DNA of 60,726 bases, filler included, from Squatina squatina (taxonomy: Eukaryota), in assembly GCA_031763465.1 (NCBI GenBank). It is 3 parts of 3 records of this genome, joined end to end, with 100 filler letters (N's around TTAATTAATTAA, not from the genome) between each part and the next. Parts side by side here need not be neighbours in the genome. Positions count along the whole stretch, not along the records: positions 1 to 16,937 come from JARFOE010000004.1; 2 more parts are not named here. One strand, given 5' to 3'. A program made the translations under genes and the position numbers. Positions 784-55,620 of this stretch are shown here, one piece after another; within the stretch, counting starts at the first letter, position 1; each line of letters starts with the position of its first letter. Under the pieces are notes generated by a model. The model did not search any database, had not been told where the DNA came from, and was given only the letters and a program-made list of their open reading frames with translations.

Positions 784-2719
784 CTAGCTTGTTCCCAGTG
801 CTATCGGAACCCCCCCTTTAGCCGCTCTCCTGTGTGTTTCCTCTCGATGCTGTGAACCAAAAAGCAGTACTATCAACTGGGCAATAACCAAAACGTGGAA
901 AAAGATCTAGATCCATGGGTGTACTTGGATATTCAAAAAACCCCAATTCCATAAATCTTCTCATCATGTGGTGTTGTCTATCCGTTTGATGTCGTTTGTC
1001 AGCAAACGAACCTGTTGCTGCAATATGTAATAAGTTCGATGCATTCGCTGGGCCTTCTCGCGAATGTCAGTGAGGTGTTCAGCTAACAACGGAATTACAT
1101 ACGAGAACTGGCTCAGATACGGAGTAAAATTTTCCTTCATGCTGTCTTCCACCTGCATGTTAACTGTGTCTCTCTTGTATATCTCCATCACTTCTATTTT
1201 TCCCACCCTTACTGATGTCTGTGGGTGTAGGCACACCGTGGGGCAAGTAATGGGGCAGCATCGATTATGCCCATATTGATATTCCCGTTGCGGCGAGGTG
1301 ATGCAATATCTTCCTTTACCCAGATGTGCCGCGTGAGTGGGCTCTAGTATATCCCGTATTGCCTCCATCGTACAGTTGGCTGTTGCATTAAACCCACATT
1401 TTGATTCCTCTGTCTCATATATTGGATGTGGACACACAACTGAAGAGGCTTCTACACTACATCTCTCTAACATAGTACCTACGATAATACCCCCTGTCCC
1501 TATTGCATATGGTGGTATCTTGTAATACTTTATATAATAACCTCCCCTGATTACCCCAATATTTTCTACTCTATATAATGTTTTAATGGGTGTTGAGTCT
1601 GGTACGACTGGAATCATCAAGACAATACTGATTAACATATTATTATGTACAATACACTTGGCATTAGTTTTGTATATATGCATTACACAAACCCCTGAGC
1701 TGGCAACGGGTCAGACCGTGATTGTGATTTCGGGAAAGGTTATACAGGTGTGAATTTATTATCTACAAGGGGACCTCCCCTTCATGGATTTGTCCCAGAT
1801 TTTCTCATGTTTGCTCGAGCATCCATGATCCGCATGCATCATTTCTGACCACGTCGTCTGAGATGTTCTTTTCTACATTAACCAATTGATTAATGGTCCA
1901 GGCATGGCTTTCTAATATAGTGTCTAGGCTTTGGATTACTTGTGTTAAATCCTGGCCCGCACCGAGTTGTCTGTCCTGAATGCTTTGTCCCCCTTCCAGA
2001 ATTTTCTTAAGTTGGGAGCTCAGGGTTCAGACTTTCTGGTCCAGTGTACCCACATCAATTGCATTTATTATGGAGTTTCCGGTGTTAAACGCGGTGGCAG
2101 CGTCGCTAATCAGCCCACGCTGCTGTCGCCTTCCCCCGGCCAGGGGCATATCCACCCACCCACTGTGCTGCCTGTGTGATAACTTGTTTTAACAGCGCTA
2201 CATACAGGGCCCGGGTCTGTTCCGGGTACCACACTGGTAAGCCAATACCTAAAATATTTAGGACTATGGGAACCAGCTCATGGTGTGCATTATCATACAG
2301 AACGCTATCCTCTGTTACTAATACCAGTCCATTCTCCAGTCCTGGACTCAGTGTCGGACAAGGTCAGTTTGTCGGTGTCGTCTTATCGTCACATATGGAA
2401 ACAGCCTTTGTTGTAACTGCCGGGGTCATGGTGCACGCCGTCGTGGTAACGTCCTGTTCCTTAGGACTCAGCGCCCACCACTGAGTCCCCTGTTTCCTTA
2501 CGTTCTCAATTCCTGGATATGGTGTCCAGTCGTTTTCACCTTTTCCAGTCATGAGCTGGGTGAATCCAGCATCACACTCTGCACGTACATGATTGTATGG
2601 TAAACAGATCATCATTTTCTCCGGGTCTCCTTTTTTCTTAATACAGATCGTGCTCGTATTTCGCCATTTGATCACTATCCCTTGTGGACCGGATCCGAAG
2701 CTACCCGTGCTGTGGGTTA
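784..2719 (-). pseudogene. Decayed endogenous viral envelope gene, class I fusion glycoprotein of F type (lokiretrovirus-like env)
   Basis: Hand translation across stops and frameshifts gives: SPGLENGLVLVTEDSVLYDNAHHELVPIVLN; cleavage site RRQQR|GLISDAATAFNTGNSIINAIDV (2131-2117); long HR1-like helix; QIHEGEVPL*II; LISIVLMIPVV..TLYRVENIG; Cys-rich block (ERC..VVCPHP..KCGFNATANCTME..RYCITS..RCCPITCPTVC); HR2-like helix; Trp-rich **EDLWNWG; hydrophobic IFFHVLVIAQLIVLLFG. Several N-glycosylation sequons. The ORF track shows only the pieces 964-1683 and 2364-2719. Confidence 0.8.
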
Positions 2720-3564: not shown

Positions 3565-3756
<192 letters not shown>

Positions 3757-4159
3757 TCATTCAGAAAAGGATTCATCCCAGTTTCTTCCCCCACAACTGA
3801 GCCATTCAAATAGAGGACTCAGTGAAAGTAAAGGACTTGTAATTTACACAATACCGTAACACACCCACAAGACATTCACAGCTCTTATTTTATTTTCTGA
3901 TATGGAACCACTTGTGATTAATCACTAACATCACTTATTAGAACATCCTTGCGACAGTCAGGTACCCAAAGCTGCAGACATTTCAAGTGAGCACCACCGT
4001 TTTTATACAAGTCTAGAATACCACATTTTGATTTCCCTGGAGGTCTAGTCTAGTACCTTATATAGTTATGTGTAAAACAAGACCATGAGAACAATTGGAA
4101 GGAAAAAATGAAAGCAGTATGACTGAACATGCAGCCAGAAAGTGTCTGCCATTAGCTTC

Positions 4160-4498
4160 AGGAAGAATTTATCTAGATTTCCAAAAGGTCTTCAATAAGG
4201 TACCACATAACAGACTAATGAATAAGGTCAGGGAATGCGGAGTCAGGGGTCAAGTCGCAGAATGGATAGGTAGCTGGCTGCAAGACATAGGAGAGAGATG
4301 GGATAGTGGGTAGCTACTCAGTGTGGCAGAAGGTAAGAAGTGGGGTCCCACAAAGATCAGTGCTGGGATAACTGTTATTCACAATTGATATTAACAATTT
4401 AGACTTTGGAATCAAAAACGGATTTCTAAACTTGCAGACGACACCAAATTGGGAGGGAAAATCAACAGTGAGGAGAACTGCAACAAATTACAAGTCAT
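4160..4498 (+). mobile_element. CR1-clade LINE reverse transcriptase fragment
   Basis: IYLDFQKVFNKVPHNRLMNKVRECGVRGQVAEWIGSWL and downstream ADDTKLGGKINSEENCNKLQ are typical CR1 RT motifs; frameshifted. Confidence 0.85.
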
Positions 4499-8313: not shown

Positions 8314-9150
8314 GAAGGAGAAAACACAAAAGAAGAAATTCATATCTGAAAATGCAGTTTTATTCTTCAGGGAATTCAGACTCCTGAATTTTTAGCAATG
8401 ACTCGGTGAGTAATCAAAACAAAGGCTTGTGGCTTGTTTCAGATTGGAAATAAAGATACTTAAACACTAACCCCCTCCCATTTGATTTGAGTACAGTAGA
8501 AACTTTTTCTTGGGAGTGTTTCCGCCAAAGCAGGATTGACTCATGAAAACATCATGTAAAAATAATTCTGCCATGTACTATCATTCCAAGTGTTTGTAAT
8601 TATTGAAGCCTTTGTGAATTATTTGGCTAAGCCATAGGTTAGTATGGCGCAGTCTTACATTAGACTGTAGTATACAAGGAAATAAGGATTCAATGTTTTT
8701 CTGGGTAGTTAAAAGGACTAGGTGGCCAACAGGAGAAATTATCTTGAACCCGAGGCTTATCTAGAACTGACTGGTCTAAATTAACTTTTTTAAAAAAAAG
8801 CAAGGATTTTAGTTAAGTAGCAAACAAAGAGAAATAAAAAGACTTGTATGTAGCACACGAGAAATCTCTGGTAAACGCCAGCCTTTCCAGGCTTTGTACA
8901 TAAGGTTTGAGTCGCTAGTACCTGGCTACAACTTCACCTCCCCCCTGTTAGCCCTCTGTCCCTCCCCTACAGTGTGTACAGAGCCAGTGCTGGTAGATGA
9001 AAAGACTGACAGCACCAGCTGGAACAAGAATGTGAACTGTGGCTCCGTCANNNNNNNNNNNNNNNNNNNNNNNNNNNNNNNNNNNNNNNNNNNNNNNNNN
9101 NNNNNNNNNNNNNNNNNNNNNNNNNNNNNNNNNNNNNNNNNNNNNNNNNN

Positions 9151-10717
9151 GCCCTCAGCCCTTCATACCAAATCCCTTTTCCCATTCAACTCTTCCCTTA
9201 AAAAGTCTAAAACAGTTACTCCTTCCTATCCCCCACCCCCATTACACTTTCTGAGCTGCAGTAATTTGCATTCTTCTCCAGCCTGGTCCTCCACATCTCT
9301 ACCGTATTCAAGGTCCACCATTTGCTCTTCAACTGGTGTGCAGCCGTCACTTCATTCTTCAAGTAAGAATGTACTTTCTCCCACTTCTCAGCAACTTTCA
9401 TATCATTCTCCTAGAATTCCTAATTATTCCTGTCAGAGCTTGACACGCACTACTTCAGCAAAATCTGATGTAGTATCTTCTCCTCCAACTCAGCTGTCAT
9501 TATTGACTTCAATCCTAAGATCTGGAAAACTGCCTCCTGTATCATCCAAATCCTCAGAACAATCAAAACTAGTTTCCTCGGCCCCATCCCTGAGCACCAT
9601 TGGTTCACAATCTTCTAGCAAATCTCCAATTCTGATAACCCAAAAAGCATCTTCTTCCTGTCAAAAAGCCAGATCACTTTCCCCCACTCCAGGGAAGTAT
9701 CTCCAGCGCCCTTCTGGAATACTTGGAGGTGTTTCTTCCGTCTCATCAAGATCCCTAACCCCTCCTTTGNNNNNNNNNNNNNNNNNNNNNNNNNNNNNNN
9801 NNNNNNNNNNNNNNNNNNNNNNNNNNNNNNNNNNNNNNNNNNNNNNNNNNNNNNNNNNNNNNNNNNNNNNNNNNNNNNNNNNNNNNNNNNNNNNNNNNNN
9901 NGCTCATTACTTGAATCCAGGTAATTCTGCACCCACTCTCTCTTCATCGTGGCATGCCACAAAGCCCCCTACATCTCCCCGTTCTCCCTCCCCGAGACAT
10001 GGATTGCCAGGACCTTTTCCTTCACGTCGTTTCTCACCAATCAGTTCATTTTTCCCAACGCCAGAACTACAGTCTCCTTTATCAGACCACACTTTAGATC
10101 ATTTACCCTCTGACAGATTGAGTAGAATTTCCCCCACCCCTGATTCGAGCTTGAATTACTGCCCTGTAAAACTTGGCAGTCTTTCACTTACTCCAACAAG
10201 TCCTTCCCTTTCTCCTTCTGCAAGACCCTACAATATTTCCCCCTTATCAGAACAGTCTGTGCCATCTTCCCCAACCTCTCTTTCTTCTTCCCCTACCCCA
10301 GTTAATTCTTCCCCGCAATCTGGTTCTGTTACTCCGACTCCATTGAATACTGATCCTTTTTTCTCTTCACTAAGATCAAGCTCTGTTCCTCCTACCCAAA
10401 ATCAAACCTCTCCTCATTCCTCTTTAAAACTGAGCTCCCATTACTCTACCCCAAATTCTTCTTCTTCACTAAATCCTCCTACCTCAGGGCAGTTATCTTT
10501 CCATCCTTCTCCTCTCCCTAGATCCAATGACACTGTCATTACTCCAGCTCACTCTGCAGCACATTTCTCTAACTCAAGGATTGACATACTGTCACCTGGT
10601 CCAGTCCAATCCCCTCCACCACCATCACTATCACCTTTCTCAAGGTCTGGCACACAATCTCCAGTACAATCTTTATCCTGTTCTGCTGAGAATGAGACTA
10701 AGAAACCAGAACAAAAG
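9151..10717 (+). CDS. MLIP: MLIP large Ser/Pro-rich exon (5' part lost in gap)
   Basis: Long open Ser/Pro-rich frame containing QLSLLTSILRSG (MLIP-like motif), ending ..NETKKPEQK|gtactt in phase 0. The next exon is the conserved MLIP motif. Confidence 0.75.
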
Positions 10718-11506
10718 GTACTTTGCATCTCTTTCTTTTGCATGTGGTAGATAGCAATGGATACTGTTCTCTTGGAATGGCATTTTCATCCTTTGCTTGT
10801 ATTGCTTGAATTAGCTTGCATGAAATAATTAAAGTTCTTTTAACCAGTATTGTTCTGATTTATATCAAATGATATGGTTAATCTTCCTTTTCTACTAATA
10901 ATTAGAAAAATCCTGCACTTTTTTAAACTTGCTTGAGTTTGCCAGAATTGTTATATCTGAGACTTGAGACGTCTTGNNNNNNNNNNNNNNNNNNNNNNNN
11001 NNNNNNNNNNNNNNNNNNNNNNNNNNNNNNNNNNNNNNNNNNNNNNNNNNNNNNNNNNNNNNNNNNNNNNNNNNNNTGGGAGATTTTTCTTAAATAAAAA
11101 TTGTTAAGGTGGGGTGATGTCACTTTATCTGGGCAGATTCAATTTCCATGTCAGCCGTTGAAAATTCCATAGCTTCATTTTAGTTAATTTTTTAAATTAA
11201 ATATATAATAAAATAAATTTGCACTGCAGATTCACTAGTTGCTCCAATGTCTTTCGGATACAGTCCTTTTCAACATTCTAATACTGCATTGTAAATGAAA
11301 CCCAGCACTACTGAACATTATACAGATGCATTTATTGCAGGGTTACAAAAGGTAGCTGTTACCACATTTTATTGCAATTGAGCTGAAATAATAACCATAA
11401 ACTTTTATCATCTCTTTTCAGTAATAAATATTTTTAATTTTTTTTTCTGCATCTCTCATTTTTAGTGCATGTTCCTTTTTTCATTATTTCCTCACTTCTT
11501 CCACAG

Positions 11507-15263: not shown

Positions 15264-16308
15264 NNNNNNNNNNNNNNNNNNNNNNNNNNNNNNNNNNNNN
15301 NNNNNNNNNNNNNNNNNNNNNNNNNNNNNNNNNNNNNNNNNNNNNNNNNNNNNNNNNNNNNNNCTGCTCTCAGGTTGGCACTTGCTGGCGACTTATTTCT
15401 GAGTATTGCTGTGATTAAATGGCAACTAACTTTGGTTTGATCAATTTCAAATCAAATTTCATTTGTAAAATGGCGTAAGGCTCTGAAATGGTATTTTAAC
15501 ATGTACTAATAGGTACGTCGGTGCAAACAGATAGCCAGGATAATGCAGGCAGGACAGCGGTCTGATTAAACTCAACTCCAGTTTCTGTGCAGCTAGAAGC
15601 GTGGGTGTAGAACAAGGCATTTCTTGTGTTGCTGTACATCTGCTCTGCTTAAAGAGTATTGCATTATTACAGGTAATTGTTCAGAATAGGTCGTTGAGAT
15701 AAGGATTGTTTTAATATAATGAGAGAGGACTTTGTGCAGTGTAACCAGCTTAGAGCAAAGTCACTGGAGCCACAGTATTACTTTGTATGCAATTTTTGCT
15801 GTATCAAGATTACTTAACTTTTTTTGTCTGACAACACTTTGCTGTTCCCCAGCCCACCTACCCAGCGCTGCTGTGGCCATCTGTATCCCAATGATCTGTA
15901 TGAAACTATTAGCTGGTACACTCATTGACTGATGTAAATTAAGCATACACTTCTCTGACTGAAACTCCAAGTAAGTTTCAAACAGGTATTGAAACTTCAA
16001 ACATGCTTTAACAAGTAGTCCCTGAACCTTTGAGAGCAGCCAAGTTTGTTACACTGGGTGTGAAAGGATTGTGCCAGTTGGTCCTTAATAGCTGCCATTT
16101 CACCGTGATCATTTAATTCTGGTCAAACAACAGGAGACAAGCTCATTCTTCTGAAGAATTTTATAAGGGTTTTCTTTACAAGGGGTTTCCACTGTATATA
16201 TTTCTGGTGTGTATTCCCTGCTGTTCAGAATTATAATACTGTTTTTTTCTTTCCCCATAGGTACGGAAATTCAACCCTGGATAGCATTTAGTATTCAATT
16301 CTGCTAAT

Positions 16309-16752
16309 ATGAACTTGTCTTCCCGCATCTCTTCCTTGGGTGATGAATACAGATCTGAGGATTATGTTGAGCCTCACTATAAGGAATGGTACCGATTAGC
16401 TATTGATACATTAGCAGATGAAGGTATTCTTGCCTATAAAGAATTTCTAGCACAAGAAGGATTGAGTGAGTTCTTGGCTGAGGAAGAGCTTTATTTCATC
16501 AAAGACAACATTAGGAAAATCTCTCCGTCAATCACAGCCCATACTCTCGAGAACAATAATGATGGCTCCTCCTCTGGCACGTACTGGCCTGTTCAGTCTG
16601 ATACAGATGCTCCTGATTTAGACTTGGGATGGCCTTATGTTATAAAAGGCTTAGAGACGGAAAGCAAAATTGATCTACGTTTTCATCCGCCTCGAGACAA
16701 CTCGCCTACAATCAAGGAGATAATAAGGAAACTGATAAAGAATGGACGGCAG
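16309..16752 (+). CDS. FAM83B: FAM83B first coding exon (DUF1669 N-terminus)
   Basis: MNLSSRISSLGDEYRSEDYVEPHYKEWYRLAID..FLAEEE..SSGTYWPVQSDTDAPDLDLGWP..FHPPR..TIKEIIRKLIK. Acceptor at 16260 and donor cag|gt after 148 codons. Confidence 0.93.
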
Positions 16753-16981
16753 GTCCCAAAATGATTTAATAATACAATAAATGTTACACTGAAATTAAGG
16801 TATATGGACACGATAGGCCGAATAGCATGCTTCTGTGCCGTAAATTTCTATGGTTCTATGAACTGACTGTTGTGACAAGGTTATTGCTAAGGTTAAGAAT
16901 GGGCTTTGGTAGAAAACATGGCAAGCTCAGCAGAAAGNNNNNNNNNNNNNNNNNNNNNNNNNNNNNNNNNNNNNNNNNNNN

Positions 16982-22731: not shown

Positions 22732-23478
22732 GAGGTTGTGTTAATGAGAGGGTTGTGTCACAGAAAGGTGTGTGTTACAGAGAGGTTGTGTTAATGAGAG
22801 GGTTGTGTTGCAGAAATGTGTGTGTTACAGAGAGGTGCGTGTTACAGAGAGGTGCGTGTTACAGAGAGAGTGTGTGTTACAGAGAGAGTGTGTGTTACAG
22901 AGAGAGTGTGTTACAGAGAGGGTGTGTTACAGAGAGAAGCGTGGTGCAGAGAGGGTTTGTTACAGGGAGGAGTTTGTTACAGAGATGGTGTGTTACAGAG
23001 AGGAGTGTGTTACAGCGAGGGTGCGTTATAAATATCAGTTTTACAGTGAGGGTGTGTTACAGAGAGGAGTGTGTTACAGAGAGGGTGCGTTACAAATATC
23101 AGTGTTACAGAGAGCAGCGTTTTACAGAGGGGACTGTGTTACAGAGAGCGTGGGTTGCAGAGAGGTTGTGTTACAGGGAGGTGTGTGTTACAGAGGGTGA
23201 GTTACAGAGAGAGTGATTTACAAGGAGTGTGTGTTACAGAGAGGAGTGAGTTACAGAGAGGAGTGAGTTACAGAGAGGAGTGAGTTACAGAGAGGGTGTG
23301 TTGCAGCGAGAGTGTGTTACAGAGAGGATTGTGTTACAGAGAAAGTGGATTGCAGAGAGGGTGTGTTACAGAAAGCAGTGTGTTCCAGAGAGGGAGTATT
23401 GCAGAAAGGTGTGTTTTACAGAAAGGGTGTGTTACAGAGTGGATTGTGTTAGAGAGGGAGTGTTACAGAGAGGAGTTG
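22732..23478. repeat. Degenerate minisatellite, core GTGTGTTACAGAGAG(G), ~15-19 bp
   Basis: About 40 copies of a TGTTACAGAGA core with variable purine-rich spacers. Confidence 0.9.
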
Positions 23479-26469: not shown

Positions 26470-26884
26470 CCCAATTGGTCCGTTAGTGCAGGCACAGAAT
26501 GAGTGCTAAACGGGCGCGAGGGGTGTAATGCCCGTTTCTGGCGCTGAGGGGCTCCGATGCAGAATTCGAGTCAGAGCAACAACGGTGCCAAATGGGCGCT
26601 TGCACAGGAGCACTGGAAACTTGGCGTCGGGTGTTGGATGGAGTCCATGACGTCATCAAGCGGCGCGACGCCAAAAATGGCCATCCCAGAGACAATTCGC
26701 TAACGCTGCAAACCTGAAAAAATAGCGGTGCCCGCGCCTGTTTGTTCGGGCAGTGACACACTCCCGGGATTTTTGGCGCTATTTAAAGGGGTAGGTGGGT
26801 CCACCATGTTGTTTGCAGAAATCGCATTGGTGACGGTTCAATCAGACTGGAGGCGTTGTCTGCAAGTTGGGAGGTCCATTCCCC
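26470..26884 (+). mobile_element. Harbinger-like DNA transposon 5' region (CpG-rich)
   Basis: Shares GCTAAACGGGCGC.AGGGGT and TTGGCGTCGGGTG..CCATGACGTCATCAA..GCCAAAATGGCC with 34880-35080. TATTTAAAGGG box as in the 14508 copy. Confidence 0.5.
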
Positions 26885-26984
26885 NNNNNNNNNNNNNNNN
26901 NNNNNNNNNNNNNNNNNNNNNNNNNNNNNNNNNNNNNNNNNNNNNNNNNNNNNNNNNNNNNNNNNNNNNNNNNNNNNNNNNNNN

Positions 26985-27462
26985 AGCATCGAGGCACTGA
27001 CCAGGCTCAATCAGCTGCGATGGGCAGGCCACATCATCCATATGCCTGACACGAGACTCCCAAAACAAGCACTCTTCTCCGAGCTCCATCACAGCAAGCG
27101 ATTACCTGGAGGGCAGAGAAAATGCTTCAGGAACATCCTCAAAGCCCCCCTGAAAAAATGTAACATCCCCAGCGACTCATGGGAATCCCTGACCCAAGAC
27201 AGCCCGAACTGGAAGAGAAGCATCCATGAAGGCGATCGCTTCGAGCATCTTCGACGGGAGCATGTGGAGGCCAAGCACAAACAGCGGAAGGAGCATGCGA
27301 CAATCCAAGCATCCCACCCACTCGCTCCTTCAAACACCACCTACCCAATTGTGGCAGAGCTTGTGGATCCCGTATGGGACTCATTAGTCACCTCAGAACC
27401 CACAATACTGAAGTGGAAGCAAGTCAACCTCAACCCCGAGGGACTGCCTAAAAAAAGAAGAA
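26985..27462 (+). mobile_element. RTE-clade LINE 3' end
   Basis: SIEAL..QLRWAGHIIHMPDTRLPKQALFSEL..GGQRKCF..LK..LKKCNI...WESL, with a GAGGGACTGCCTAAAAAAAGAAGAA tail typical of RTE elements. Confidence 0.9.
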
Positions 27463-28086
27463 TCTGTTGGAGGACAGATTGCTGGACTGCTAGGACACCC
27501 TGAAAGCCCCTTTGAACATTGGTACCAGCAGCCATGGTGGCAGTAGTATGCGCTTGCATGGCAGCATGCTGAGCTTGCATGGCAGCACTCAGATTTTTGG
27601 TGGAAGCTGCTTGTGCTGCAATGGAAGCTGAGCCATCGGCCACCAGATACTGCATCATGGTTGGTTCCACAAGTGTGCTAATGGAATTGGCCACCAGTTC
27701 TGTGCTGGAAAGGATGGGGTCCAAGCAATGCGCAAAGCCCAGTGCCAGGTTGGAAAACCTTTGACCCTGCTCTGTCCCATGTTGTGCCATTCATCACTGT
27801 TTCCCAGGTCGCATTCACTTCCTGGATGACTCCCAGCACCTGCTCCAGTCACAATACTCCTCCCCTTTAAGAGGTGCAGGCTTGCTTTAAGTAGTGCTAG
27901 TAAGTTATGATTTTGGGCCCCCTGCTGATGCATACAGCCAATTAACAGTGCAGTTAGCACTGGCTGCATGTAGAAATAATGCTAATGCGCAGGCAGCACG
28001 AAGATGGCGTGCTGCCTGCATTTCAAACAACGAGCGCAGGTTCGATCCCTGCACCCGTTTTCATGGGCTATTCACTTTAGCCCCCA
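27463..28086 (-). mobile_element. Probable Harbinger second-ORF (Myb/SANT-partner, coiled-coil C-terminus) fragment and element end
   Basis: Ala/Gln-rich helical peptide LALGFAHCLDPILSS..SASIAAQ..QRGFQGVLAVQQSVLQQI, cut by the RTE. Terminal ..TTTAGCCCCC. 12-bp hairpin GCAGGCAGCACG/CGTGCTGCCTGC at 27989-28019. Confidence 0.45.
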
Positions 28087-28862: not shown

Positions 28863-30002
28863 GCGAATGGGAGAGATTAGCACGCAGCTGCTCGAATGAA
28901 TGCGAATGGGAGAGTTTGGCAACGCGAAAGGGAGAGTTTGAAAAGAAAGTACTTGAATTAATGCAAATGGGAGAGCCTGACACTGCGAATGAGAGAGTTT
29001 GGCAAGAAACTGCTCTCCGGAATGCGAATCAGAGAGTTTGGCAAGAAACAACTCGAGTGAGTGTGAATGGGAGAGTTTGATGCTACGAATGCGAGAGGTT
29101 GGCAAGGAACTACTTGAATGATTGCAAATGGGAGAGTTTGGCCAGAAAGGTCTTGAATTAATGCGAATGGGAGAGATTGGCAAGAAACTACTCGAGTGAG
29201 AGTGAATGGGAGAGTTTGATGCTGCGAATACGAGAGTTTGGCAAGAAACTACTTGAATGAATGCAAATGGGAGAGGTTGGCCAGAAAGATCTTGAATGAA
29301 CGCGAATAGGAGAGATTGGCAAGAAACTACTCGAATGCATGGGAATGGGAGAGTTTGATAATGCGAGTTGTAGAGATTGGCAAGAAACTACTCGAATGAA
29401 AGCGAATGCGAGAGTCTTGCAAGAAACTGCTCGAATCAATGCTCATGGCAGAGTCTGGCAAGAAACTACTCGAATGAATGCAAATGGGAAAGTTTGGCAA
29501 GAAACTACTCAAATGAATGCGAATGGGAGAGTTTGGCAAGAAACTATTCGAATCAGTGCGAATGGGAGAGATTGATGCTCGGAATACGAGAGTTTGGCAA
29601 GAACCTACTTGAATGAATCTGAATGGGAGAGTTTGGCTGGAAACTACTCGACGGAATGCGAATCGGAGTGTTTGGCAACAAACTACTCGAATGAATGCGA
29701 ATGGGCGAGTTTGTCAACAAACTACTCAAATGAATGCGAATGGGTGAGATTGGCAAGAAGCTGCTCGAATAAATGCGAATGGGAGAGCTGGGCAACGCGA
29801 AAGGGAGAGTTTGAAAAGAAAGTACTGGATTGAATGCAAATGGGAGAGCCTGACACTGCGAATGAGAGAGTTTGGCAAGAAACTGCTCTACGGAATGCGA
29901 ATCAGAGAGTTTGGCAAGAAACTACTCGAGTGAGTGTGAATGGGAGAGTTTGATGCTACAAATGCGAGAGGTTGGCAAGTAACTTCTTGAATGATTGCAA
30001 AT
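28863..30002. repeat. Satellite of ~39-bp monomers (GAATGAATGCGAATGGGAGAGTTTGGCAAGAAACTACTC) interspersed with ~20-bp half units
   Basis: Direct tandem repetition visible. 28888-29129 recurs almost identically at 29761-30002 (offset 873). Confidence 0.92.
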
Positions 30003-40920: not shown

Positions 40921-41755
40921 NNNNNNNNNNNNNNNNNNNNNNNNNNNNNNNNNNNNNNNNNNNNACATGAAGGAGGAACAATTAATTGGGCAATGTGCAG
41001 GAAGGGCAGAGAGCTCACAGCACCTGCCAGTGGGGTGGGGAAATGAGAAAAACCCTTTCCTGTTGCTGGAGGCCGTGGAGGGGCTGCAGGTTAATGAGCA
41101 GATTTACCTCAGATTAAGTTGAAAATAACGTTTAGTATTTGTGCGCGGCCCAGCTCACACCTGTTGCAGTGAAGAACTGAATTGGTTCTGAGCATGATGG
41201 GTCGAATGATCTCCTTCTGTGCTGTTTGATCAGGAAATCCCCATGTATTGTGTATTTGTTTAATTTTAAGCTTTAAGAAAAAGACAGAGACGGCAGGTTA
41301 TTTTTCTGTACAATGTCTATTTAGGCTGTATTGTAAATGAGGAACAGAACACATTGTATAAGATAAACCTATTTACATAACCTGTCACTCTACCAATGCT
41401 GGTCTACATCAGAGACAGTCCTGGTCTGGTGCACAAAGCACGTGGTTTAAAATGGGTCAAACTTCTACAGGGAAAAACCTGCTCAAAGTGGTCACCTTCC
41501 GGGCACAACACGACTGCAAAACAGGCGGTGTGCGTCAGTTAGAGTGGCTGCTCGGAGCACGGTGTCTAGGGTTACAGGAGAATCAGCTCTGCCAGAATTC
41601 ACTCCAGGCTCCAGTTACTCTGCATCCAGTTTGTGTCAGACTGCCTGGAGCCTGCNNNNNNNNNNNNNNNNNNNNNNNNNNNNNNNNNNNNNNNNNNNNN
41701 NNNNNNNNNNNNNNNNNNNNNNNNNNNNNNNNNNNNNNNNNNNNNNNNNNNNNNN

Positions 41756-44700
41756 GGCCATTTCCACAGCTTCTTGCAGTCCATACAGTCTCCCAGAGAC
41801 CAGATAGACCCCACTGGCCCAGAGCACGCAGGCCTCATGGATCCACAGCTCCTCGGGGTCGAGAGGTAGTTGAGGGAGCTGGAGCTCCACTTGGGAGCCA
41901 AGCTCACTTTTAAATCTTTGAGTCCGTAAGTCGACAGAAGAGGTCTTCTCACAGCAGTAGCAGCGCCTGTGGCCCTTGCTGCTCCGGGGGCTGGCCCAGG
42001 AAGGGGTGCAATCCTCGGAGTAGTGACGCCTTTTGAACCTCGGGTGTCCCATGACATTCCCGAACTCCTTGCCCTCGTCCTCCGATTGGCTAGTCTTTAG
42101 CAGCTCGGGCATGCTTTTGTGCCTCACCTTCACCCGGTTCTGCGCCGGCATCATCTTCTTGGGGGGCGGGTTCTTGGGCAAGGTGCCAGCATACTGGTGT
42201 GGGTAGTAGGGCCCAAAGAGGTCACCCAGGTCCCTGTGGTTGGCGCACTTGCCGCACAGGCAGCACACCAGCAGGCCGAGGGTGGAGCTCTCAGTCACCA
42301 GCGGGCCCGGCACCATGTGCGAGGAGGTCGGTAAGGCTTTGCCAGCACAGCTGGGTGGGGGGGCGGAGGCCGGTCCCTGATGACCTTTCACCCCTTTCTG
42401 GGCCCGGTCCTGTTCTTCATCCTGGGTGTTGATTATTGTGCAAAGCAGCGCGGCCTCGCGCTTCCTCTCCAGCAGCACGTACGGGGAGAAGCCCTTATCC
42501 TCGGACTCCCCTCGCCTCCTGCCCACTGTTCGAGCCGCGTGTTTCAGCTTGACCTCTGGTTCCTGGGGCAGCACAATGGGGCCTTCGAGCCTCTTGCGAC
42601 GCCTCCTCGGGTGGGAAGGTGGTTTCTTTCTCTCGGGCCTCCTCTTCCTTTTGGCCGTCTCCTGCACCTCCTCCTGATTCCGCGCTCCCTGACACTCCTG
42701 CCGACACCGCTTCTGCTTGTTGATGCTCCCCAAGGGCCTCCCCCGCTTCTTGCCGGACGGAAAGTACCCTTTGACAGACCCACCTTCGGCCTTGGGGGTG
42801 ACGACAACAGGTCCTACCCCAGCCTCGCGGCCTGGGGAACAGGGCAGGGGGCAAGGGGTACCACATTGCTTGGATTCAGGGTGATGCGGAACCCGGATGG
42901 TTGGCGAGGGACCTCCACCAATCTGGGAGCAATTGGCACGCACTGTTTCACGAGCTGCCCCATGGTCCATGGCCTTCGCTTCCGGCTCCTCCAATGGATC
43001 TGCATGCACCTTATCCCGAGGCTGCGCCACTGTCGGGTCGCCACTCTCCCAGCCTCCCTCTCTGACAGACAGGATGTCCTCCAGGGTCACGCTGTCAGAG
43101 GCCCCATCGAGCGTTCCCACTGCAGAGAACTTCCTCCCGTTGGGCGACGTGATCTTCTGGACAATGGCTTCCAGCTTTAAGCCACGGCCCTTTCGTGGTG
43201 GTAGAGTTTTGGTTTTGCCTGGACTGGCGAGAGAAGCAGCCGGAGAAATGCTACCACTGGGGCTGTCCTTCTCGTCATTCATCTGCTGAGGTTCGGTACC
43301 AAACTCGGACTTGTGCGCGGGGCTCGGACTAGCACTGTGCTGGGGGGCGTGGGGGTCGCGAGGGGGAGCTGATTTGGCCTCTACATCCCTGGCTTTTGAC
43401 TCTTGGCAAAGTCTTTTGGCTGGAATAGGTGATATAAAAGATCGAATCCTTCTCCTCGACAAAATAGAGGATTGAATTGACTGGTCCTCCTGACCCATCG
43501 TATCGTTTTGCTTTTTAGTCACAGGTGAAAGTTTGTCCGCGTTCACTGACCATTCGTCCGGCTTTGGGCTTTGGGGCTGGCGACTCTGAAGTGAGAGGTG
43601 GCTGCCTATCTCCTGCTGCATGACGTTAGAGACTCTCGACTCTTTCTGAAGCCCGCTCCTGCAGAACTCCGCCGGGAGGTCCTTCCTGTCAGGCACGTTC
43701 CTCCAATCACTTGGCTCTTCGGGGTCGTGCAACTGCCTCTGCGAATGGATTGGGGACATCATAGTGGCTTCTGACTCCATACCCAATAAAGGAGCACTAA
43801 CTTGCTTGNNNNNNNNNNNNNNNNNNNNNNNNNNNNNNNNNNNNNNNNNNNNNNNNNNNNNNNNNNNNNNNNNNNNNNNNNNNNNNNNNNNNNNNNNNNN
43901 NNNNNNNNNNNNNNNNNNNNNNNNNNNNNNNNNNNNNNNNNNNNNNNNNNNNNNNNNNNNNNNNNNNNNNNNNNNNNNNNNNNNNNNNNNNNNNNNNNNN
44001 NNNNNNNNNNNNNNNNNNNNNNNNNNNNNNNNNNNNNNNNNNNNNCGCCTCACTCTCGAGGATCGACTGTTCAAAGCCTGATGGGGAAAGTTGGCGGCGG
44101 GTCCCACGGGCAATGGTGTGGAAACCATGGTGGAATCTCTGGCCAGCTCGCAATGGTCATACTTCCAGAGGGTCCCAGGGTCTCTGCTTTCGCGGTGTCC
44201 AACACTCCTTTGCTGTCCTTGGCTTTGGTCCACCTCACCCTTAACTCTTGTTTCTGCAGCTACAAAAAGACCCGACTGGATAACCGACTGTCCTGCTTTG
44301 TAAGACTTATCTGCCTTCGTGTTCTGGCCAAACCCTCGATCGTGAGAGTGTCCGCAGGCCGGAGGCACGGAGCTTCTGCCAAACAGCCTCGACGGGGAGA
44401 CGTCACAGATGACCGACTTCCTCTCCGACATCCCACTCTCGAGCTGCGTCTCCAGATCAACCTTGCCCTGCTCCGTTCCAAAACCGGGGTCCGGTGCCCT
44501 CCCGTCCCCCCAGGCCGAGAGAGAAGCCATGGGGTTACAGCGCACTTCCTTCCTGGCCAACTCAACCATCTGCCGTGCCGGGTAGCCAAGTTGCACAGGG
44601 GCATCCAGAAAACCCGAATACTGAAGCTCTGGAGCGTAACTGGAGTGAAACTTCCTCCCGTGATAGTTGGCTTGCAAAGCTTCTTGGAGCAAACTGTGGC

Positions 44701-46741
44701 TCTTTTCAGACTTGCCTGGGAGGACCTTCCGGTCTCCGAGAGCGAACTGGTCCGCCTCCGGTTGGCTGTAAGTGACTGGATACTGCATGTAATGGTACCC
44801 GCCGTCATTCTTAGGCATGTCCCGAAACCCATACACCAAGCAGCTGGAAGACTTGGAGGAGGGGTCCAGTCTTGTGGCCAAGGGGTCACCGAGCACCGCC
44901 TGACCTTGATGCACCAGACCATTCCCATTTTGGGCTGTTGATCGCGCCATGATGTTGCGAGTGTTATTGGGTTGCTGGTTGCGACCAGATCCCTTCACGT
45001 CACTGATGGGGAAAGTGTTCGGCCTGGAGTGTTGGTCCTCTTGCCGGCTGACGCCCATCGCATCCCCTCTGCTGATCATCGCTTCCCGGGACACGATGAC
45101 GCCAATGGGCTTCTCGCTGCGCGGTGGGCCTTGCTCTGCCAGCGTCGTCATGGCGCCCCCTTTCCCCTCCTGGCACATCTGGGCGATCAGCTCCTCCTTC
45201 GAGAGCGGCTGGCCGGGGCCGTCGCCATGGGAACTGGGTGTCTCCGGGAGGTGGGCCTGGTAGGCCCGCTCAGAGCAGCCACTTTGCCCGCTGAGCTGCC
45301 GGACCCGCTCCGCGTGGTCCTCGGAGGAACTGGAGCAGCCCCCATCCAGGGACTCTGCCTGCGGTGACTTCAGCTGCTCCTCCAGGCCCAGGTGCTCGGT
45401 GGGGCCTCCTGGCCGCTTGGCGGTGCGCCGGGCCTGGCGGCGGTGCAAAGCCAGCGTGTCGGAGATCAGCAGGTGCTGCACAGTGTTGGGGATGTTGGCC
45501 ACTTGCGAGCTCAGGGCCGTCAGGCTGCTCAGGCCCAGGTCAGAAGCCCGCTTCTCACTCCCGCCCTCCAGCCCAAAGCCCTCATAGGCTCCGGACTGCG
45601 AGCCGGGGCTCGGCACCAGGCCTGTCGGAGTGGGGCTGGGCTGGGGCAGCAGCTGTAGGATCCGGCTTCTCGCCCCCATGCCCATGGCTCCGGGCCCACA
45701 TTGCAGGCTGTCGTTGCTGACCATGAGAGGAGACGGGGTGGAGCTACACGAAGGGGACTGGGCCATGGGGNNNNNNNNNNNNNNNNNNNNNNNNNNNNNN
45801 NNNNNNNNNNNNNNNNNNNNNNNNNNNNNNNNNNNNNNNNNNNNNNNNNNNNNNNNNNNNNNNNNNNNNNNNNNNNNNNNNNNNNNNNNNNNNNNNNNNN
45901 NNNNNNNNNNNNNNNNNNNNNNNNNNNNNNNNNNNNNNNNNNNNNNNNNNNNNNNNNNNNNNNNNNNNNNNNNNNNNNNNNNNNNNNNNNNNNNNNNNNN
46001 NNNNNNNNNNNNNNNNNNNNNNNNNNNNNNNNNNNNNNNNNNNNNNNNNNNNNNNNNNNNNNNNNNNNNNNNNNNNNNNNNNNNNNNNNNNNNNNNNNNN
46101 NNNNNNNNNNNNNNNNNNNNNNNNNNNNNNNNNNNNNNNNNNNNNNNNNNNNNNNNNNNNNNNNNNNNNNNNNNNNNNNNNNNNNNNNNNNNNNNNNNNN
46201 NNNNNNNNNNNNNNNNNNNNNNNNNNNNNNNNNNNNNNNNNNNNNNNNNNNNNNNNNNNNNNNNNNNNNNNNNNNNNNNNNNNNNNNNNNNNNNNNNNNN
46301 NNNNNNNNNNNNNNNNNNNNNNNNNNNNNNNNNNNNNNNNNNNNNNNNNNNNNNNNNNNNNNNNNNNNNNNNNNNNNNNNNNNNNNNNNNNNNNNNNNNN
46401 NNNNNNNNNNNNNNNNNNNNNNNNNNNNNNNNNNNNNNNNNNNNNNNNNNNNNNNNNNNNNNNNNNNNNNNNNNNNNNNNNNNNNNNNNNNNNNNNNNNN
46501 NNNNNNNNNNNNNNNNNNNNNNNNNNNNNNNNNNNNNNNNNNNNNNNNNNNNAGGCTCTCTGCGGAAGGCCGGGTACAGCTGCTGGTCACAGCCCTCGCT
46601 GGCTGGCCGGTTGGCGTAGCTGGCAAACATCTGGCCCTGGTGGTGCTGTCCGTACTCGGCCAGCCGGGCCGACTCCTGGGCCTCTTGGTGCAGCAGCCTC
46701 TGGTTTCCGTGGTAACTGCTCTGCTCCCGGTACGACTGCAT
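41756..46741 (-). CDS. TCF20: TCF20 giant first coding exon (two internal gaps, 3' end lost in gap)
   Basis: Starts MQSYREQSSYHGNQ after an acceptor at 46777. Contains SPSCSSTPSPLM, LSSLTALSSQVANIPNTVQHLLISD, RRRIRSFISPIPAKR, GRGLKLEAIVQKITSPN, AT-hook PSGKKRGRP and the ePHD start LVCCLCGK..LGDLFGPYYP..ELWIHEACVLWASGVYLVSGRLYGLQEA. Confidence 0.93.
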
Positions 46742-47977
46742 GCTGTGGTGTGGCACAGTCCAATCCTCGGCGGGTTCTGAGGAAACAGAAGAGGAGGAGG
46801 AAAATCAATCAAGAAACCAACGGGGCTTGATACCAACAGCGCCCAGAGACACGAGCAGCAGGAATCGCTCCCAGGGTCACTGCCTTTGCAAAGTAGCTTG
46901 CGACCATTACTGCTCCAAGCCCTGTCACCAGGGTCAGTACAAAACTAAAACCCTTTTCCTTTAATCATGCATCGAGGGGGAAGCACGGAGCAGAAATGGG
47001 AATGATGAGGAAGCTAGCCCTCCGCTCGCTGGCAAACTGGCAAGGGGTGGCGGTGCTCACCTGGCACACGAAGCCAGTGACTCGCCAGGTTTACACCCGG
47101 GAACGACTCGATTTCATCCAAACTGCGCTGAGGATTGCCAGCAGTAAGGAGAGAGGGTCTCACAGTAAGTGATCCCCACACCAGGGCATTAATGGAAGAC
47201 TCTCAAAGCCACAGTGGGCCACGGTGCTATCGGAGTCAAAAGCAATAGGCTTCCTGCAGCCCCCTCACTTCTTGCTTCAAGTCCTTCAAGGCCAGGCTGG
47301 GAAGAGCAAGTTTGATCCTGGCAACATTTCCCGTGGCCAAGAGGCCGACACTAAGCCCTCCCTCTTACAGCCTGAAAAGAGTCCATTCACTTTGACACCT
47401 GGAGCTGGAGCAGGGACAGCGCATGGGGNNNNNNNNNNNNNNNNNNNNNNNNNNNNNNNNNNNNNNNNNNNNNNNNNNNNNNNNNNNNNNNNNNNNNNNN
47501 NNNNNNNNNNNNNNNNNNNNNNNNNNNNTCTCCCCTCCTTTCTCCTCTCACTCCTCATGTAGGGCTCATTCCCAAAGGAACCTTGCCAAGCGGAGTATTG
47601 GACCGAGGCAGAGGGTATTATAGCCGAGCCTCGACCTGTGCCCGACTGACGGGTGTGGAGGGGACCGATGGTGGAGTAGGAGGTCCCTCCTGCCCCAGGG
47701 ACCAGGGAGAGCAGTTGAAGCAATCTGACTGCAGTAGGTTGAGGTCAGCTACTGGGCGGGGTACTGGGACTGTTCCAGTCTGTGACTAAGCTCCACCCTC
47801 GTCACTGCATTCACCCACATTCGGGAAAGAGGGGTTCAAAGATCATGCCCCATAAACAGATGACATCAGTCCCTTAAATCATGTGTTGCAGCTCAAAAGG
47901 CTGCACTCAGAACCTTGAGTATGACCTTGTAAGATCTCCTCTCTAATGTGAAGCCCTCTTTCTACTCCAGCCCAGCC

Positions 47978-48218
47978 ATGCTGAATGTGCCAGCCAAAAA
48001 CTCCTACAGGATGGTGATCCTGGGAGCCTCCAAGGTGGGAAAGTCCTGCATCGTGTCCCGCTTTCTGAACAGCAGGTTTGAGGAGCAGTACACCCCCACC
48101 ATCGAGGACTTCCACCGCAAAGTCTACAACATCCGTGGCGATATTTACCAGCTTGACATCCTCGACACGTCCGGGAATCACCCCTTCCCCGCCATGAGGA
48201 GACTTTCCATCCTCACCG
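47978..48218 (+). CDS. RASD2: RASD2 (Rhes) coding exon 1
   Basis: Acceptor ctactccag|cccagccATG. MLNVPAKNSYRMVILGASKVGKS (P-loop)..YTPTIEDFHRKVYNIRGD..DTSGNHPFPAMRRLSILT G|gtaggt. Confidence 0.93.
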
Positions 48219-48228
48219 GTAGGTCCGG

Positions 48229-48622
48229 ACGGAGAGAGGGAGAGAGGGACAGAGCGAGAGGGAGGGGGAGGGAGAGGGATAGAGAGAGTGAGAGAGGAAT
48301 AGAGAGCGAGAGGGAGGGATAGAGAGAGAGCGAGAGGGACGGATAGAGAGAGAGAGAGGGATAGAGAGAGGGATAGAATGAGAGAGTTGTATTGGATTGA
48401 GCGAGAGGGATAGAGAGATGGGGATAGAGAGGGGGAATGGAGAGAGAGAGGGGGATGGAGAGAGAAGGGGGTGGAGAAAGGTAGAGAGAAAGAGAGTTAG
48501 AGTGATATAGGGAGAGAGGCAGGGATAGAGATGGAGAGACTAGGATAGAGAGAGAGTCAGGGATATGTGTGTATATAGATATAGAGAGATAGAGATAGAG
48601 AGAGAGGGAGGGAGGGAGGGAT
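48229..48622. repeat. GA-rich polypurine low-complexity tract in the RASD2 intron
   Basis: Nearly continuous GAGA/GGGA/GATA repeats. Confidence 0.9.
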
Positions 48623-48710
48623 ATATATAACAGAGCAATAATGGCTTCTCCTGCCCTCGCCTGGGGCCTCCACAGTCCGAATGACTTTCCGTTGCCCTCT
48701 GTTTTTGCAG

Positions 48711-49240
48711 GTGATGTTTTTATCCTGGTCTTCAGCTTGGACAGCCGGGGATCTTTCGAAGAAGTCCAGCGCCTACGCAGGCAGATCATCGAGTGCAAGA
48801 CGTGCCTGAAGGACAAGACCAAAGAGCCGATGGAAATCCCCATGGCCCTGTGCGGCAACAAGGTTGACCGTGTGGAGCTGCACCGGGAGGTGCAGTCCGA
48901 CGAGGCCGAGCGGTTGATCGCCGGCGATGCCAACAGCGCCTACTTCGAAATCTCCGCCAAGAAGAACTCCAACGTGGAGGAGATGTTCCGGGCCCTGTTC
49001 AGCATGGCCAAGCTCCCCCATGAAATGAGCCCGGCCCTTCACCGCAAGATCTCAGTGCAGTACTGCGAGGTGTTCCATCGCAAGTCCTTCCGCCTCAGGC
49101 GGGTCAAGGAGGTGGACGCATTCGGCATGGTGTCTCCCCAGGCCCGCAGGCCCAGTGTCAACAGCGACCTGATGTACATCAAGGAGAAGGTGCTGGGCCG
49201 AGCACAGGCCAGGGATCGTGAGAAATGTCTCATCCAGTGA
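48711..49240 (+). CDS. RASD2: RASD2 coding exon 2
   Basis: tttttgcag|(G)DVFILVFSLD..CGNKVD..EISAKK..MAKLPHEMSPALHRKISVQY..RRPSVNSDL..CLIQ* (CAAX). Joined CDS is 771 nt (256 aa). Confidence 0.93.
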
Positions 49241-49820: not shown

Positions 49821-51004
49821 CATCACACAGCAACCATCACCCAGCAACCATCACCAGTCCATCCACCAGCAACCATCACCAGTCCATCACCCAGCAACCA
49901 TCGCCAACCCATCAACCAGTAAACATCGCCAGCCCATCACCCATCGCCAACTCATCACCCGGCAACCATTGCCAAACCATCCCCTGGCAACCATCACCAA
50001 ACCATCACCCATCGCCAACTCATCACCCGGCAACCATCAGCAGCCCATCACCCATTGCCAACTCATCACCCGGCAACCATTGCCAAACCATCCCCTGGCA
50101 ACCATCACCAGCCCATCACCCATCGCCAACTCATCACCCGGCAACCATCGCCAACTCATCACCCAGCAACCATCGCCAACCCATCACCCGGCAACCATCG
50201 CCAGCCAACCTCCCAGCAACAATCGGCAATCCATCCCCCAACAACCATCGCCTACCCATCACCAATCGTCAATCTGTCACCTAGCAACCATCGCCATCCC
50301 ATCCCCCAGCAACCATTATCAGCCCATCCCCAGCAACCAGCGCCAGCACATCCCCCGGCACCCATCGCCATCCCATCCCCCAGCAACCTTTGCCACCCAT
50401 CACCGAACAACCATCACCCAGCAACCATCGCCAGCCTTTCACCCAGCAACCATTGCAAGCCCATCACCCAGCAACCATGACAACCCATCATCTGGCAGCC
50501 ATCGCCAGTCCATCACCGAGCAACCATCGCGGACCCATCACCCGGCTACCATCGCCAGTCCATCAGCCGGCAACCATTGTCAGCCCATCACCCAGCAACC
50601 TTCGCCACCCATCACCGAACAACCATCACCCAGCAACCATGGCCAGCCCTTCACCCAGCAACCATTACCAGCCCATCCCCAGCAACCACCGCCAGCCCAT
50701 CCCCCGGCACCCATCGCCATCCCATCCCCCAGCAACCAGCGCCAACCCATCACCCGGCAAACTTTGCCACCCATCACCGAGCAACCATCACCCGGCAACC
50801 ATCGCCAGCCCATCACCCAGCAACCATCACCAGTCCATCCACCAGCAACCATCACCAGTCCATCCCCCAGCAACCATCGCCAGCCCATCAACCAGTAAAC
50901 ATCGCCAGCCCATCACCCATCGCCAATTCATCACCCGGCAACCATCGCCAAACCATCCCCTGGCAACCATCACCAGCCCATCACCCATCGCCAACTCATC
51001 ACCC
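49821..51004. repeat. Low-complexity C/A-rich tandem array (CCATCACCCAGCAA-like units)
   Basis: Permuted CCATC(A/G)CC / CAGCAA modules throughout; 49821-50040 recurs near 50800-51004. Confidence 0.9.
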
Positions 51005-53527: not shown

Positions 53528-53680
53528 GCTGTACCTGCCCTGGGAATGTTTGTTGGGACTCCCTCCCTAACATCACTATGGGAGCACCTTCACCACACGG
53601 GCTGCAGCAGTTCAAGAAGGTGGCTCACTACCCGGGGCAATCTTGCCAGTGACACTCATATCCCGAAAATCAGTAACTAG
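53528..53680 (+). mobile_element. CR1-clade LINE 3' end (second family)
   Basis: ACTCCCTCCCTAAC..CACCACACGGGCTGCAGCAGTTCAAGAAGGTGGCTCAC..GCCAGTGACACTCATATCCC. Confidence 0.7.
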
Positions 53681-53738
53681 TGTGCATGTTACAGCATTGC
53701 TTCCAATAAAACCAAAAGGTGTTTTGATTTATGTTGAG

Positions 53739-53990
53739 GTCGACACCATGTTGAAGATGGGATTCCAGCAGCAGGTATTGGATATTCTGGAGAAAACGCC
53801 TGAGGAGCATCAAACGATTCTGGTCTCTGCCACAATCCCAGCAGGCATCCAGCAGCTGGCCAGCCAATTCCTGCAGGACCCAGTCAGGATCACGGTGGGA
53901 GAGATGAACCAGCCTTGTTCCAACGTCCGTCAGATTATCCTGTGGGTGGAGGAGCCATCTAAGAAGAAGAAACTGTTTGAGATTCTGAAC
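53739..53990 (+). CDS. DDX59: DDX59 DEAD-box helicase internal exon (252 nt)
   Basis: [74 protein letters not shown], containing motif III (SAT). Flanked by ttgag| and |gcaagt. Confidence 0.88.
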
Positions 53991-54202
53991 GCAAGTAGAA
54001 TTGGAGTTTTGTGTGTGAATGAAAAGTGGGGAATCTCTGATCCAAGCAAGGGGCAGTGGGCGGGGGAATCGGGCTCATATTCATGATAGAGATTGGTGAG
54101 AGGGCAGAGAAGCTCCCCTCGTAGATGAGTTGGGAGGTGTGGGACTGAACCATCACTGAACAGGAAGGACCCTTGTTTGGCCCCAATCTGTGTACAGTTA
54201 AC

Positions 54203-54600
54203 TGGGCTCCATACCTAAAGAAAGATGTGTGTGCCTTAGAGCAGGTGCAACGCAGGTTCACCAGATTGATTCCTGGGAGGAGGGGGTTGTCCTGTGAGGA
54301 GAGATTGAGTAGATTGGGCCTGTAATTTCTGGAATTTAGAAGATCGAGAGGTGATCTCATTTTAAAGTATAAGATTCTGAGAGGGCTTGACAGAGTAGAT
54401 GCTGAGAGATTGTTTCCCCTGGCTGGAGAGTCTAGAACTAGGGGACACAGTCTCAGGATAAGAAGTCGGCCATTTAAGACTGAGATGAGGAGGAATTTCT
54501 TCACTCGGAGGGTGGTGAATCTTTGGAATTCTCTACCCGAGAGGGCTATGGATACTAAGTCTTTGAGTATATTCAAGGCTGATTTTTGGACTCTCGGTGA
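54203..54600 (+). mobile_element. CR1/HER1-like LINE 3' fragment
   Basis: WAPYLKKD..LEQVQRRFTRLIPG..LFPLAGESRTRGHSLRIRSRPFKTEMRRNFFTRRVVNLWNSLP. Confidence 0.9.
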
Positions 54601-55620
54601 CTCGNNNNNNNNNNNNNNNNNNNNNNNNNNNNNNNNNNNNNNNNNNNNNNNNNNNNNNNNNNNNNNNNNNNNNNNNNNNNNNNNNNNNNNNNNNNNNNNN
54701 NNNNTTGCCTGCCTACTTCAATCTGCAAGGGAATTACAGAAACACCCCGCGTTCATCGAGCCGTGAGTCATGACTAATTTTTCCAGCTGTGTTAATAAAT
54801 GTGGACAAGGAAACGGTCAATTTTAATAGCTGCAATATACAAAGATGCGGTGTACACAACAATGGAAAATGAGTAGACTGCAATGCAGTAGCAACTCTGG
54901 CCAGACCAATTTGATATGTAGGTTTACTTCGGATTTGGGGGAACAATAGAAGGGATACTACTGCTAAACTTCAAGCAGCAATTTGAGACCACTAGATTTA
55001 AACTGGGACCAGTATTTACTGGATATGTGCTGAGATTTAATTGCATTGTTTGCTCATATCAAGAAACAAATTCTGGAGTAGTTTGCTCTGGGCTTAAATG
55101 CCATTTTAAAAATCTTGGATCATCAATTAGTTTTTCACTCACTGAAGCTATCTTTTTTCAAGAATTGGTCCAGCACTAAAAGCTTGCATAGTTGCTTCAT
55201 CTAAAAAGAGCAACCATCTCGACTTAGGGTTTCACTTTACAAGTAACGAACATTGCACTAAATGTGATTAACATCAAAGATGATTGTGGCAAAAGGCTGA
55301 ATTTTACAGGCAGAGCCACCACCAGTATTATTCAAACTGTTGTAATGAAGTCACAACCTTAAAATCTGATGATACACATCTGAATAATCTGCCATCGCAT
55401 ATCCTGGAAAATGAAGTATCCATACTTCATCGGGTGCACATGAAAAGAGGACTATTGGGGAAAAGGTGGCTTTATACCGTATTGTGGGAACACGGAGACG
55501 ATTTCCTCTCTCCCTCACTGNNNNNNNNNNNNNNNNNNNNNNNNNNNNNNNNNNNNNNNNNNNNNNNNNNNNNNNNNNNNNNNNNNNNNNNNNNNNNNNN
55601 NNNNNNNNNNNNNNNNNNNN

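Follow-up and report, generated by a model that had tools for sequence, protein, structure and literature searches.

A decayed envelope gene with a predicted F-type fold in Squatina squatina and the shark-centred family to which it belongs

A broken envelope gene on a short contig

The window, by which we mean the whole stretch of 60,726 nt of Squatina squatina DNA analysed here, consists of 40 short segments with a median length of 1231 bases; of its 39 long gaps, 30 have a length of exactly 100 N, and the window as a whole resembles a reference-guided scaffold of short contigs. The whole setting of the env-like locus is a contig of 2001 bases at 719-2719, bounded on both sides by gaps of 100 N, and neither a pol gene, an LTR nor a signal peptide was identified on this contig. 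The adjoining contigs, as named by eye, contain unrelated host exons and LINEs. Sequences that we take to be host exons were located at 3567-3712 (minus strand), about 6146 (plus) and 16285-16764 (plus), resembling RPL11, LRRC1 and FAM83B, and at 41636-46804 (minus), 47933-49240 (plus) and 53571-54086 (plus), resembling TCF20, RASD2 and DDX59. Fragments at about 4100-4480, 8813-10750, 26787-27503 and 54326-54766, all on the plus strand, are presumably LINEs of the CR1/HER1, L2 and RTE types. Tandem arrays were also noted elsewhere in the window, at 37-122, 22732-23473, 28891-29984 and 49821-51004, the repeat periods being 31, 17/33, 39/61 and 18-68 bases.

The env-like gene is encoded on the minus strand in 3 collinear frame pieces, identified by both tblastn and profile searches. 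The tblastn searches with homologues yielded collinear HSPs at 2381-2154, 2137-1676 and 1677-856, in the same order as in the profile search, where a profile of 18 homologues, from which the window sequence was excluded, gave scores of 39.0, 95.1 and 263.9 bits to the pieces from the N- to the C-terminal end. The maximum score of the same profile against 100 shuffled versions of the contig was 3.3 bits, and the env homology of the window pieces is far beyond chance. The gene contains 2 frameshifts and 7 stop codons (at 2366, 2029, 1807, 1765, 966, 963 and 909); this copy is dead, and a full-length protein cannot be made from it.

The most upstream segment is an open frame of 117 codons at 2367-2717, which is truncated by the contig end, shares its reading frame with the F2-like piece and contains no stop codons, as compared to 8 and 9 in the remaining minus-strand frames. 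Its product has 5 cysteines, one sequon and a Thr-rich end, and showed no match by Pfam, BLAST, hhalign or HMM searches. Since full-length homologues contain about 150 to 195 residues ahead of the same C-P motif, this frame is probably the N-terminal extension of the Env protein, although it may instead represent the end of a pol gene. An in-frame stop codon at 2364-2366 separates the extension from the F2-like piece, and the tblastn HSP with the homologue P0007 crosses it from position 2381. The first-pass annotation had proposed a repaired protein of about 640 amino acids for 784-2366; that span corresponds to about 527 codons, and the proposed length is reached only if the frame at 2367-2717, which lies outside it, is included.

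The F2-like segment at 2154-2363 matched the family profile at 43.6 bits (E = 1e-15) and is 42% identical to P0007. It is followed by the first frameshift, placed approximately at 2137-2154 by a shift from frame -2 to frame -3 in the tblastn alignments, and by a minimal furin-type site, RQQR, at 2117-2128, the only R-x-x-R motif in its frame piece, where the homologues have RSKR, RKRR or RRRR. A Gly/Ala-rich putative fusion peptide was placed immediately after this site (2060-2116) in the alignment of homologues; it is weakly hydrophobic, with no 19-residue window reaching a value of 1.6. The HR1 coiled coil at 1862-2074, interrupted by the stop codon at 2029, has a hydrophobic fraction of 0.67 at the a and d positions, and tblastn identities to P0007, P0011 and P0012 in this region were 34% to 36%. 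The adjoining segment at 1676-1861 contains a cysteine at the end of HR1 (1834), a G-E-V-P motif at 1769-1780 and stop codons at 1807 and 1765, and the second frameshift was located by tblastn near 1676-1690.

Downstream of the G-E-V-P motif are the strands described as ISIVLMIPVV and LYRVENIG. According to the Pfam hit, the model and the fold searches, the uninterrupted segment at 1099-1677 is a beta-rich and cysteine-rich core corresponding to predicted F domains I and II, with 10 cysteines between 1656 and 1233. The HR2 segment at 970-1098 forms a helix of 39 residues in the model, with a hydrophobic fraction of 0.83 at the a and d positions. It is followed by a Trp-containing membrane-proximal region at 925-966 with 2 adjacent stop codons (966 and 963), a transmembrane helix at 847-924 with a Kyte-Doolittle peak of 2.57 over 19 residues and a stop codon at 909, and a short cytoplasmic tail with the terminal stop codon at 784-846. 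A purine run inside the tail region, AAAGGGGGGG at 819-810, was noted as a candidate polypurine tract. Every motif that the first-pass annotation had named in describing a minus-strand gene with F-type env anatomy, including the R-X-X-R site, was thereby located. As it had also stated, the CX6CC motif is absent from the 3 window pieces, and the 7 homologues scanned lack it as well; the CX6CC motif and immunosuppressive domain that characterize the transmembrane subunit of gamma-type retroviral Env proteins were not found.

Predicted fold and env family

The order of elements, from F2 over the basic cleavage site, the fusion peptide, HR1 and the cysteine-rich core to HR2 and the transmembrane helix, is that of F proteins, and the three-dimensional core of the F type was recognized in a low-confidence predicted model. 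The Pfam domain Fusion_gly (PF00523) was hit with 13.1 bits (E = 0.03), which is below the gathering score of 29.8. When the low-confidence model was compared to the PDB with Foldseek, a check that had been suggested at the outset, all 36 matches listed were paramyxovirus or pneumovirus F proteins, the best with an E-value of 6.8e-4. The 50 matches listed in the BFVD fold search included 12 paramyxovirus F0 proteins, 4 named baculovirus F proteins and 3 retroviral Env proteins, namely WEHV-1 at rank 14 (E = 3.2e-3, probability 0.97) and foamy virus and WDSV at ranks 44 and 46 (E = 0.14 for both), and none of the 50 was named as a gamma- or beta-type Env. An unfiltered VIA search with the model placed F proteins at ranks 1, 3 and 4. 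The identity to F proteins in the fold matches was 9% to 19%. Taken at these modest scores, the model supports an F-type (class Ib) fold for the window protein.

The family was delineated with HMMER searches over 1.84 billion representative sequences at a threshold of E <= 0.001, which gave 17 matches, the best with 42% identity and an E-value of 2e-43. Sharks were the source of 11 of the 17 matches (genera Heterodontus, Heptranchias, Pristiophorus, Chiloscyllium and Mustelus) and a frog, Pelodytes, of one; all 12 named sources are vertebrates, with no teleost among them. Most of the matches are fragments of decayed copies, while the Pelodytes protein P0014 is an uninterrupted ORF of 723 amino acids. 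A protein from Xenopus tropicalis, P0024, enters the family through the frog match, being 54% identical to P0014, and its alignment to the shark proteins by hhalign had a probability of 99.2% (E = 9e-20). Env fragments were also joined to an fbxo15 isoform model in Heterodontus (P0013) and to a cadherin-related 5-like model in Pristiophorus (P0015), each reflecting either exonisation or an annotation artefact. The N-terminal module of the family is variable; the source annotation of one relative reads "Ig-like domain-containing", and a second relative touched the V-set domain at an E-value of 0.045. We found no description of this shark-centred env family in the literature searched, in which the relevant papers were incompletely covered.

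A phylogeny with 16 rows, rooted at the midpoint only, was inferred from the window sequence and 15 of 24 proteins after exclusion of short fragments and chimeric models. The window sequence paired with P0001 from Heterodontus with support values of 88/91, within a group of 11 rows that contained diverse shark copies and was split with 100/100 support from the other 5 rows, which comprise the 3 intact proteins from sharks, that of the frog and one Logan protein. This placement is consistent with a shark-type host.

The carrier of the envelope gene

The Pfam hint, the fold searches and the profile homology bear out the original description of the locus as an endogenous F-type fusion envelope. 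We favour the reading, with a probability of roughly 0.6, that it is a decayed env gene of a shark-centred family, with a predicted class Ib fold, that is likely the remnant of an ancient, non-loki endogenous retrovirus. As its most likely carrier we infer a basal canonical retrovirus in the SnRV/Ovex1-proximal, epsilon-like or foamy-like grade. Chondrichthyan genomes are rich in RT loci of clades III and I, with 2843 and 2018 loci, respectively, in 6 genomes, and epsilon-like ERVs are described from the elephant shark in the available part of PMC4422223. In the same text, CmiERV, which clusters with SnRV, bears what by eye is a gamma-type env, which argues against an SnRV-type carrier.

Class Ib proteins release their fusion peptide upon cleavage, HR1 becomes extended and HR2 folds back, and F has been described as a minimal scaffold to which receptor-binding modules can be added either N-terminally or between the subunits (PMC11468914, available sections). 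By analogy, the Env of the ancestral virus would have formed a trimeric spike, the variable N-terminal module of which would have bound the cell, presumably through a receptor. The fusion peptide would have been released by cleavage at the R-x-x-R site, and the zipping of HR1 and HR2 into a six-helix bundle round the cysteine-rich core would have merged the membranes.

The locus had been annotated as probably lokiretrovirus-like, and an env gene from a divergent shark lineage of lokiretroviruses, in which an N-terminal module and additional disulfides would have been acquired, is the strongest of the alternatives, although we consider it unlikely and give a basal canonical retrovirus the higher probability. 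Our comparison was made by eye with 8 of the 23 Env entries and 4 C-termini in PMC7947760, of which only part was available. It showed that loki Env proteins share with the family the start motif of F2, the Gly/Ala/Ser pattern after the cleavage site, the histidine in HR1, the G-x-(I/V)-P, (L/I)-P-(I/V)-(I/V) and N-(V/I)-G motifs and the spacing of C-P and C-G. Both are also F-like, with an R-x-K-R site in loki Env, a fusion peptide, a coiled coil and a transmembrane helix, and PF00523 is touched by both loki Env and the window protein. Because the Env entries share real motifs, as judged by eye, kinship of the family with loki Env is likely, and the annotation is supported at this level of motifs.

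Membership in the lokiretroviruses is another matter, being defined by an RT clade that is sister to the canonical retroviruses, with a gag-pol-env layout between LTRs, a tether plus RNase H and a CGIN1-like integrase (PMC7947760, in the part available). The window protein resembles Mononegavirales F proteins as loki Env does, but this similarity is not diagnostic, because foamy virus Env is also F-like; nor does the Trp-rich stretch before the transmembrane helix discriminate, since amphibian lokiretroviruses also have it. According to the available text by Wang and Han (PMC7947760), loki RT was detected in none of 6 chondrichthyan genomes and lokiretroviruses in at least 120 ray-finned species, yet no named teleost is among our 17 matches. 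By eye, the architecture also differs: in the entries compared, the conserved motif directly follows the signal peptide, the N-terminal extension is missing, and the cysteine at the end of HR1, the G-x-G-x-Y-C motif and the later cysteines are lacking. Furthermore, X. tropicalis contains both the family member P0024 and a Loki-Xtr Env that by eye is unlike it. The underlying premise, that among vertebrate elements this layout belongs to lokiretroviruses, did not hold: foamy virus Env is F-like, walleye Env proteins were retrieved by the fold search, and the ORF3 products of Ovex1, GGLTR11 and TERV have a cysteine pattern that is alike by eye.

An origin from an env-bearing Ty3/Gypsy element of the errantivirus type, the other carrier suggested previously, is improbable. 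F-type ENV proteins of errantiviruses are widespread in animals, P0013 hit Baculo_F at an E-value of 0.0011, below the cut-off, and Atlas pointed weakly to Gypsy/Baculo_F clusters at scores of 0.80 to 0.81, where scores under 0.9 are leads only. However, the 12 named family matches are all from vertebrates, and the survey of errantiviruses, in the part available, reported no intact element in vertebrates with homology to those of invertebrates (PMC13524379). Similarly improbable is a non-retroviral insertion, in which host retroelements would have copied F from a mononegavirus or another F-bearing virus into the germ line. The best fold matches of the model are indeed mononegavirus F and G proteins, and paramyxovirus-like EVEs have been reported from sharks, but the low identity to F proteins, the many divergent and decayed relatives in shark lineages and frogs, which suit an amplifying retroelement, and the position of the similar Ovex1 ORF3 behind gag-pol all speak against it. 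Finally, the window copy has the family and layout expected of a pseudogene of the gene that is intact and conserved in sharks (P0009, P0019 and P0020), but it is only 25% to 27% identical to that gene and hence a different one, as also indicated by their separation in the tree, which makes this origin very improbable.

Intact shark relatives and known F-type envelopes

The intact shark proteins are P0009 from Chiloscyllium punctatum (739 amino acids), P0019 from Scyliorhinus torazame (754) and P0020 from Heterodontus francisci (754) (accessions of the set: XP_072333160.1, XP_067889054.1 and GCC29952.1). They have an R-x-(K/R)-R site and a transmembrane helix and are 85% to 88% identical to each other over 3 shark orders, with uneven conservation that ranges from 95% to 98% in HR2 and the membrane-proximal region to 63% to 73% in the transmembrane helix and tail. 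The identity of the intact copies alone is no proof of selection, because neutral rates in sharks are slow. The 3 lineages diverged roughly 160 million years ago or more. With this split and an assumed rate of 2.2e-10 (PMC4422223, available text), and on the premise that the genes are orthologues, about 3.3 stop codons would be expected per lineage and the probability that all 3 frames stayed open would be about 5e-5, an estimate to be read with the sample bias that intact copies alone appear in protein databases. Intact copies in 3 orders may alternatively stem from recent cross-species infection. From their sequences, we regard P0009, P0019 and P0020 as a gene that may be a domesticated F-type env or fusogen. 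It is a testable candidate for syncytin-like or antiviral co-option, with a fold that was not found among co-options in the literature searched.

The window locus itself is a dead fragment, and its value is as a handle on this env family. A shark and frog family of F-type proteins in which characters of loki Env and of Ovex1 ORF3 are combined makes the idea of a single ancient F-type envelope testable when it is taken with the F-like foamy virus Env. Wang and Han favour independent acquisition of env by lokiretroviruses and canonical retroviruses, because the 2 sets of envs showed no similarity (PMC7947760, available part). We tentatively raise a different scenario, which we think has the odds somewhat against it, in which the shark family, loki Env, the ORF3 of Ovex1 and TERV, walleye epsilonretrovirus Env and foamy virus Env would form one lineage, the F-type fusogen would be ancestral among retroviral envelopes instead of having been captured by lokiretroviruses alone, and a member of the family would have been domesticated in galeomorph sharks as an F-type fusogen or receptor-blocking gene.

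Among known systems, the F proteins of paramyxoviruses and pneumoviruses share the predicted fold and the order of elements, but they are only 9% to 17% identical, lack the N-terminal extension and belong to another virus order. The Env proteins of the walleye epsilonretroviruses WEHV-1 and WDSV include the best retroviral match to the predicted fold, that of WEHV-1, but are much longer (1159 to 1317 amino acids in the library) and only 12% to 13% identical. Foamy virus Env is likewise retroviral with a class Ib, F-like core (PDB 8RM0/8RM1), but according to the available sections of PMC11468914 its receptor-binding domain is inserted between the subunits, whereas the extra module of the shark family is N-terminal and only about 80 codons lie between the C-P motif and the cleavage site; no Pfam match to foamy Env was obtained for the window protein or the homologues scanned.

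The remaining comparison is with the avian Ovex1 ORF3, GGLTR11 and TERV env, described in PMC2717909, of which part was available. Ovex1 ORF3 sits behind gag-pol, and its identity as an envelope was left uncertain by the authors. All three are long ORFs in the env position that, like the shark family, lack CX6CC and the immunosuppressive domain, and by eye they share the G-x-L-P motif, matching cysteine spacing, the coiled coil, Y-(V/I)-G-K-G-x-x-C and, ahead of the transmembrane helix, W-W and H-P; Ovex1 and GGLTR11 also share the cysteine at the end of HR1 (Fig. S6). Ovex1 ORF3 differs in its length of 873 to 874 amino acids, in lacking the C-P and C-G of the family and in being reported without a signal peptide. 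The top Atlas cluster for P0009 was an unnamed chordate protein of 874 amino acids, equal in length to the zebra finch ORF3, at a score of 0.82, which is a lead only. No link between Ovex1 ORF3 and F-type fusogens was found in the literature searched. The resemblance to the family by eye suggests that the avian Ovex1 ORF3, GGLTR11 and TERV env may be F-type fusogens, and a family link would supply a fold for Ovex1 ORF3.
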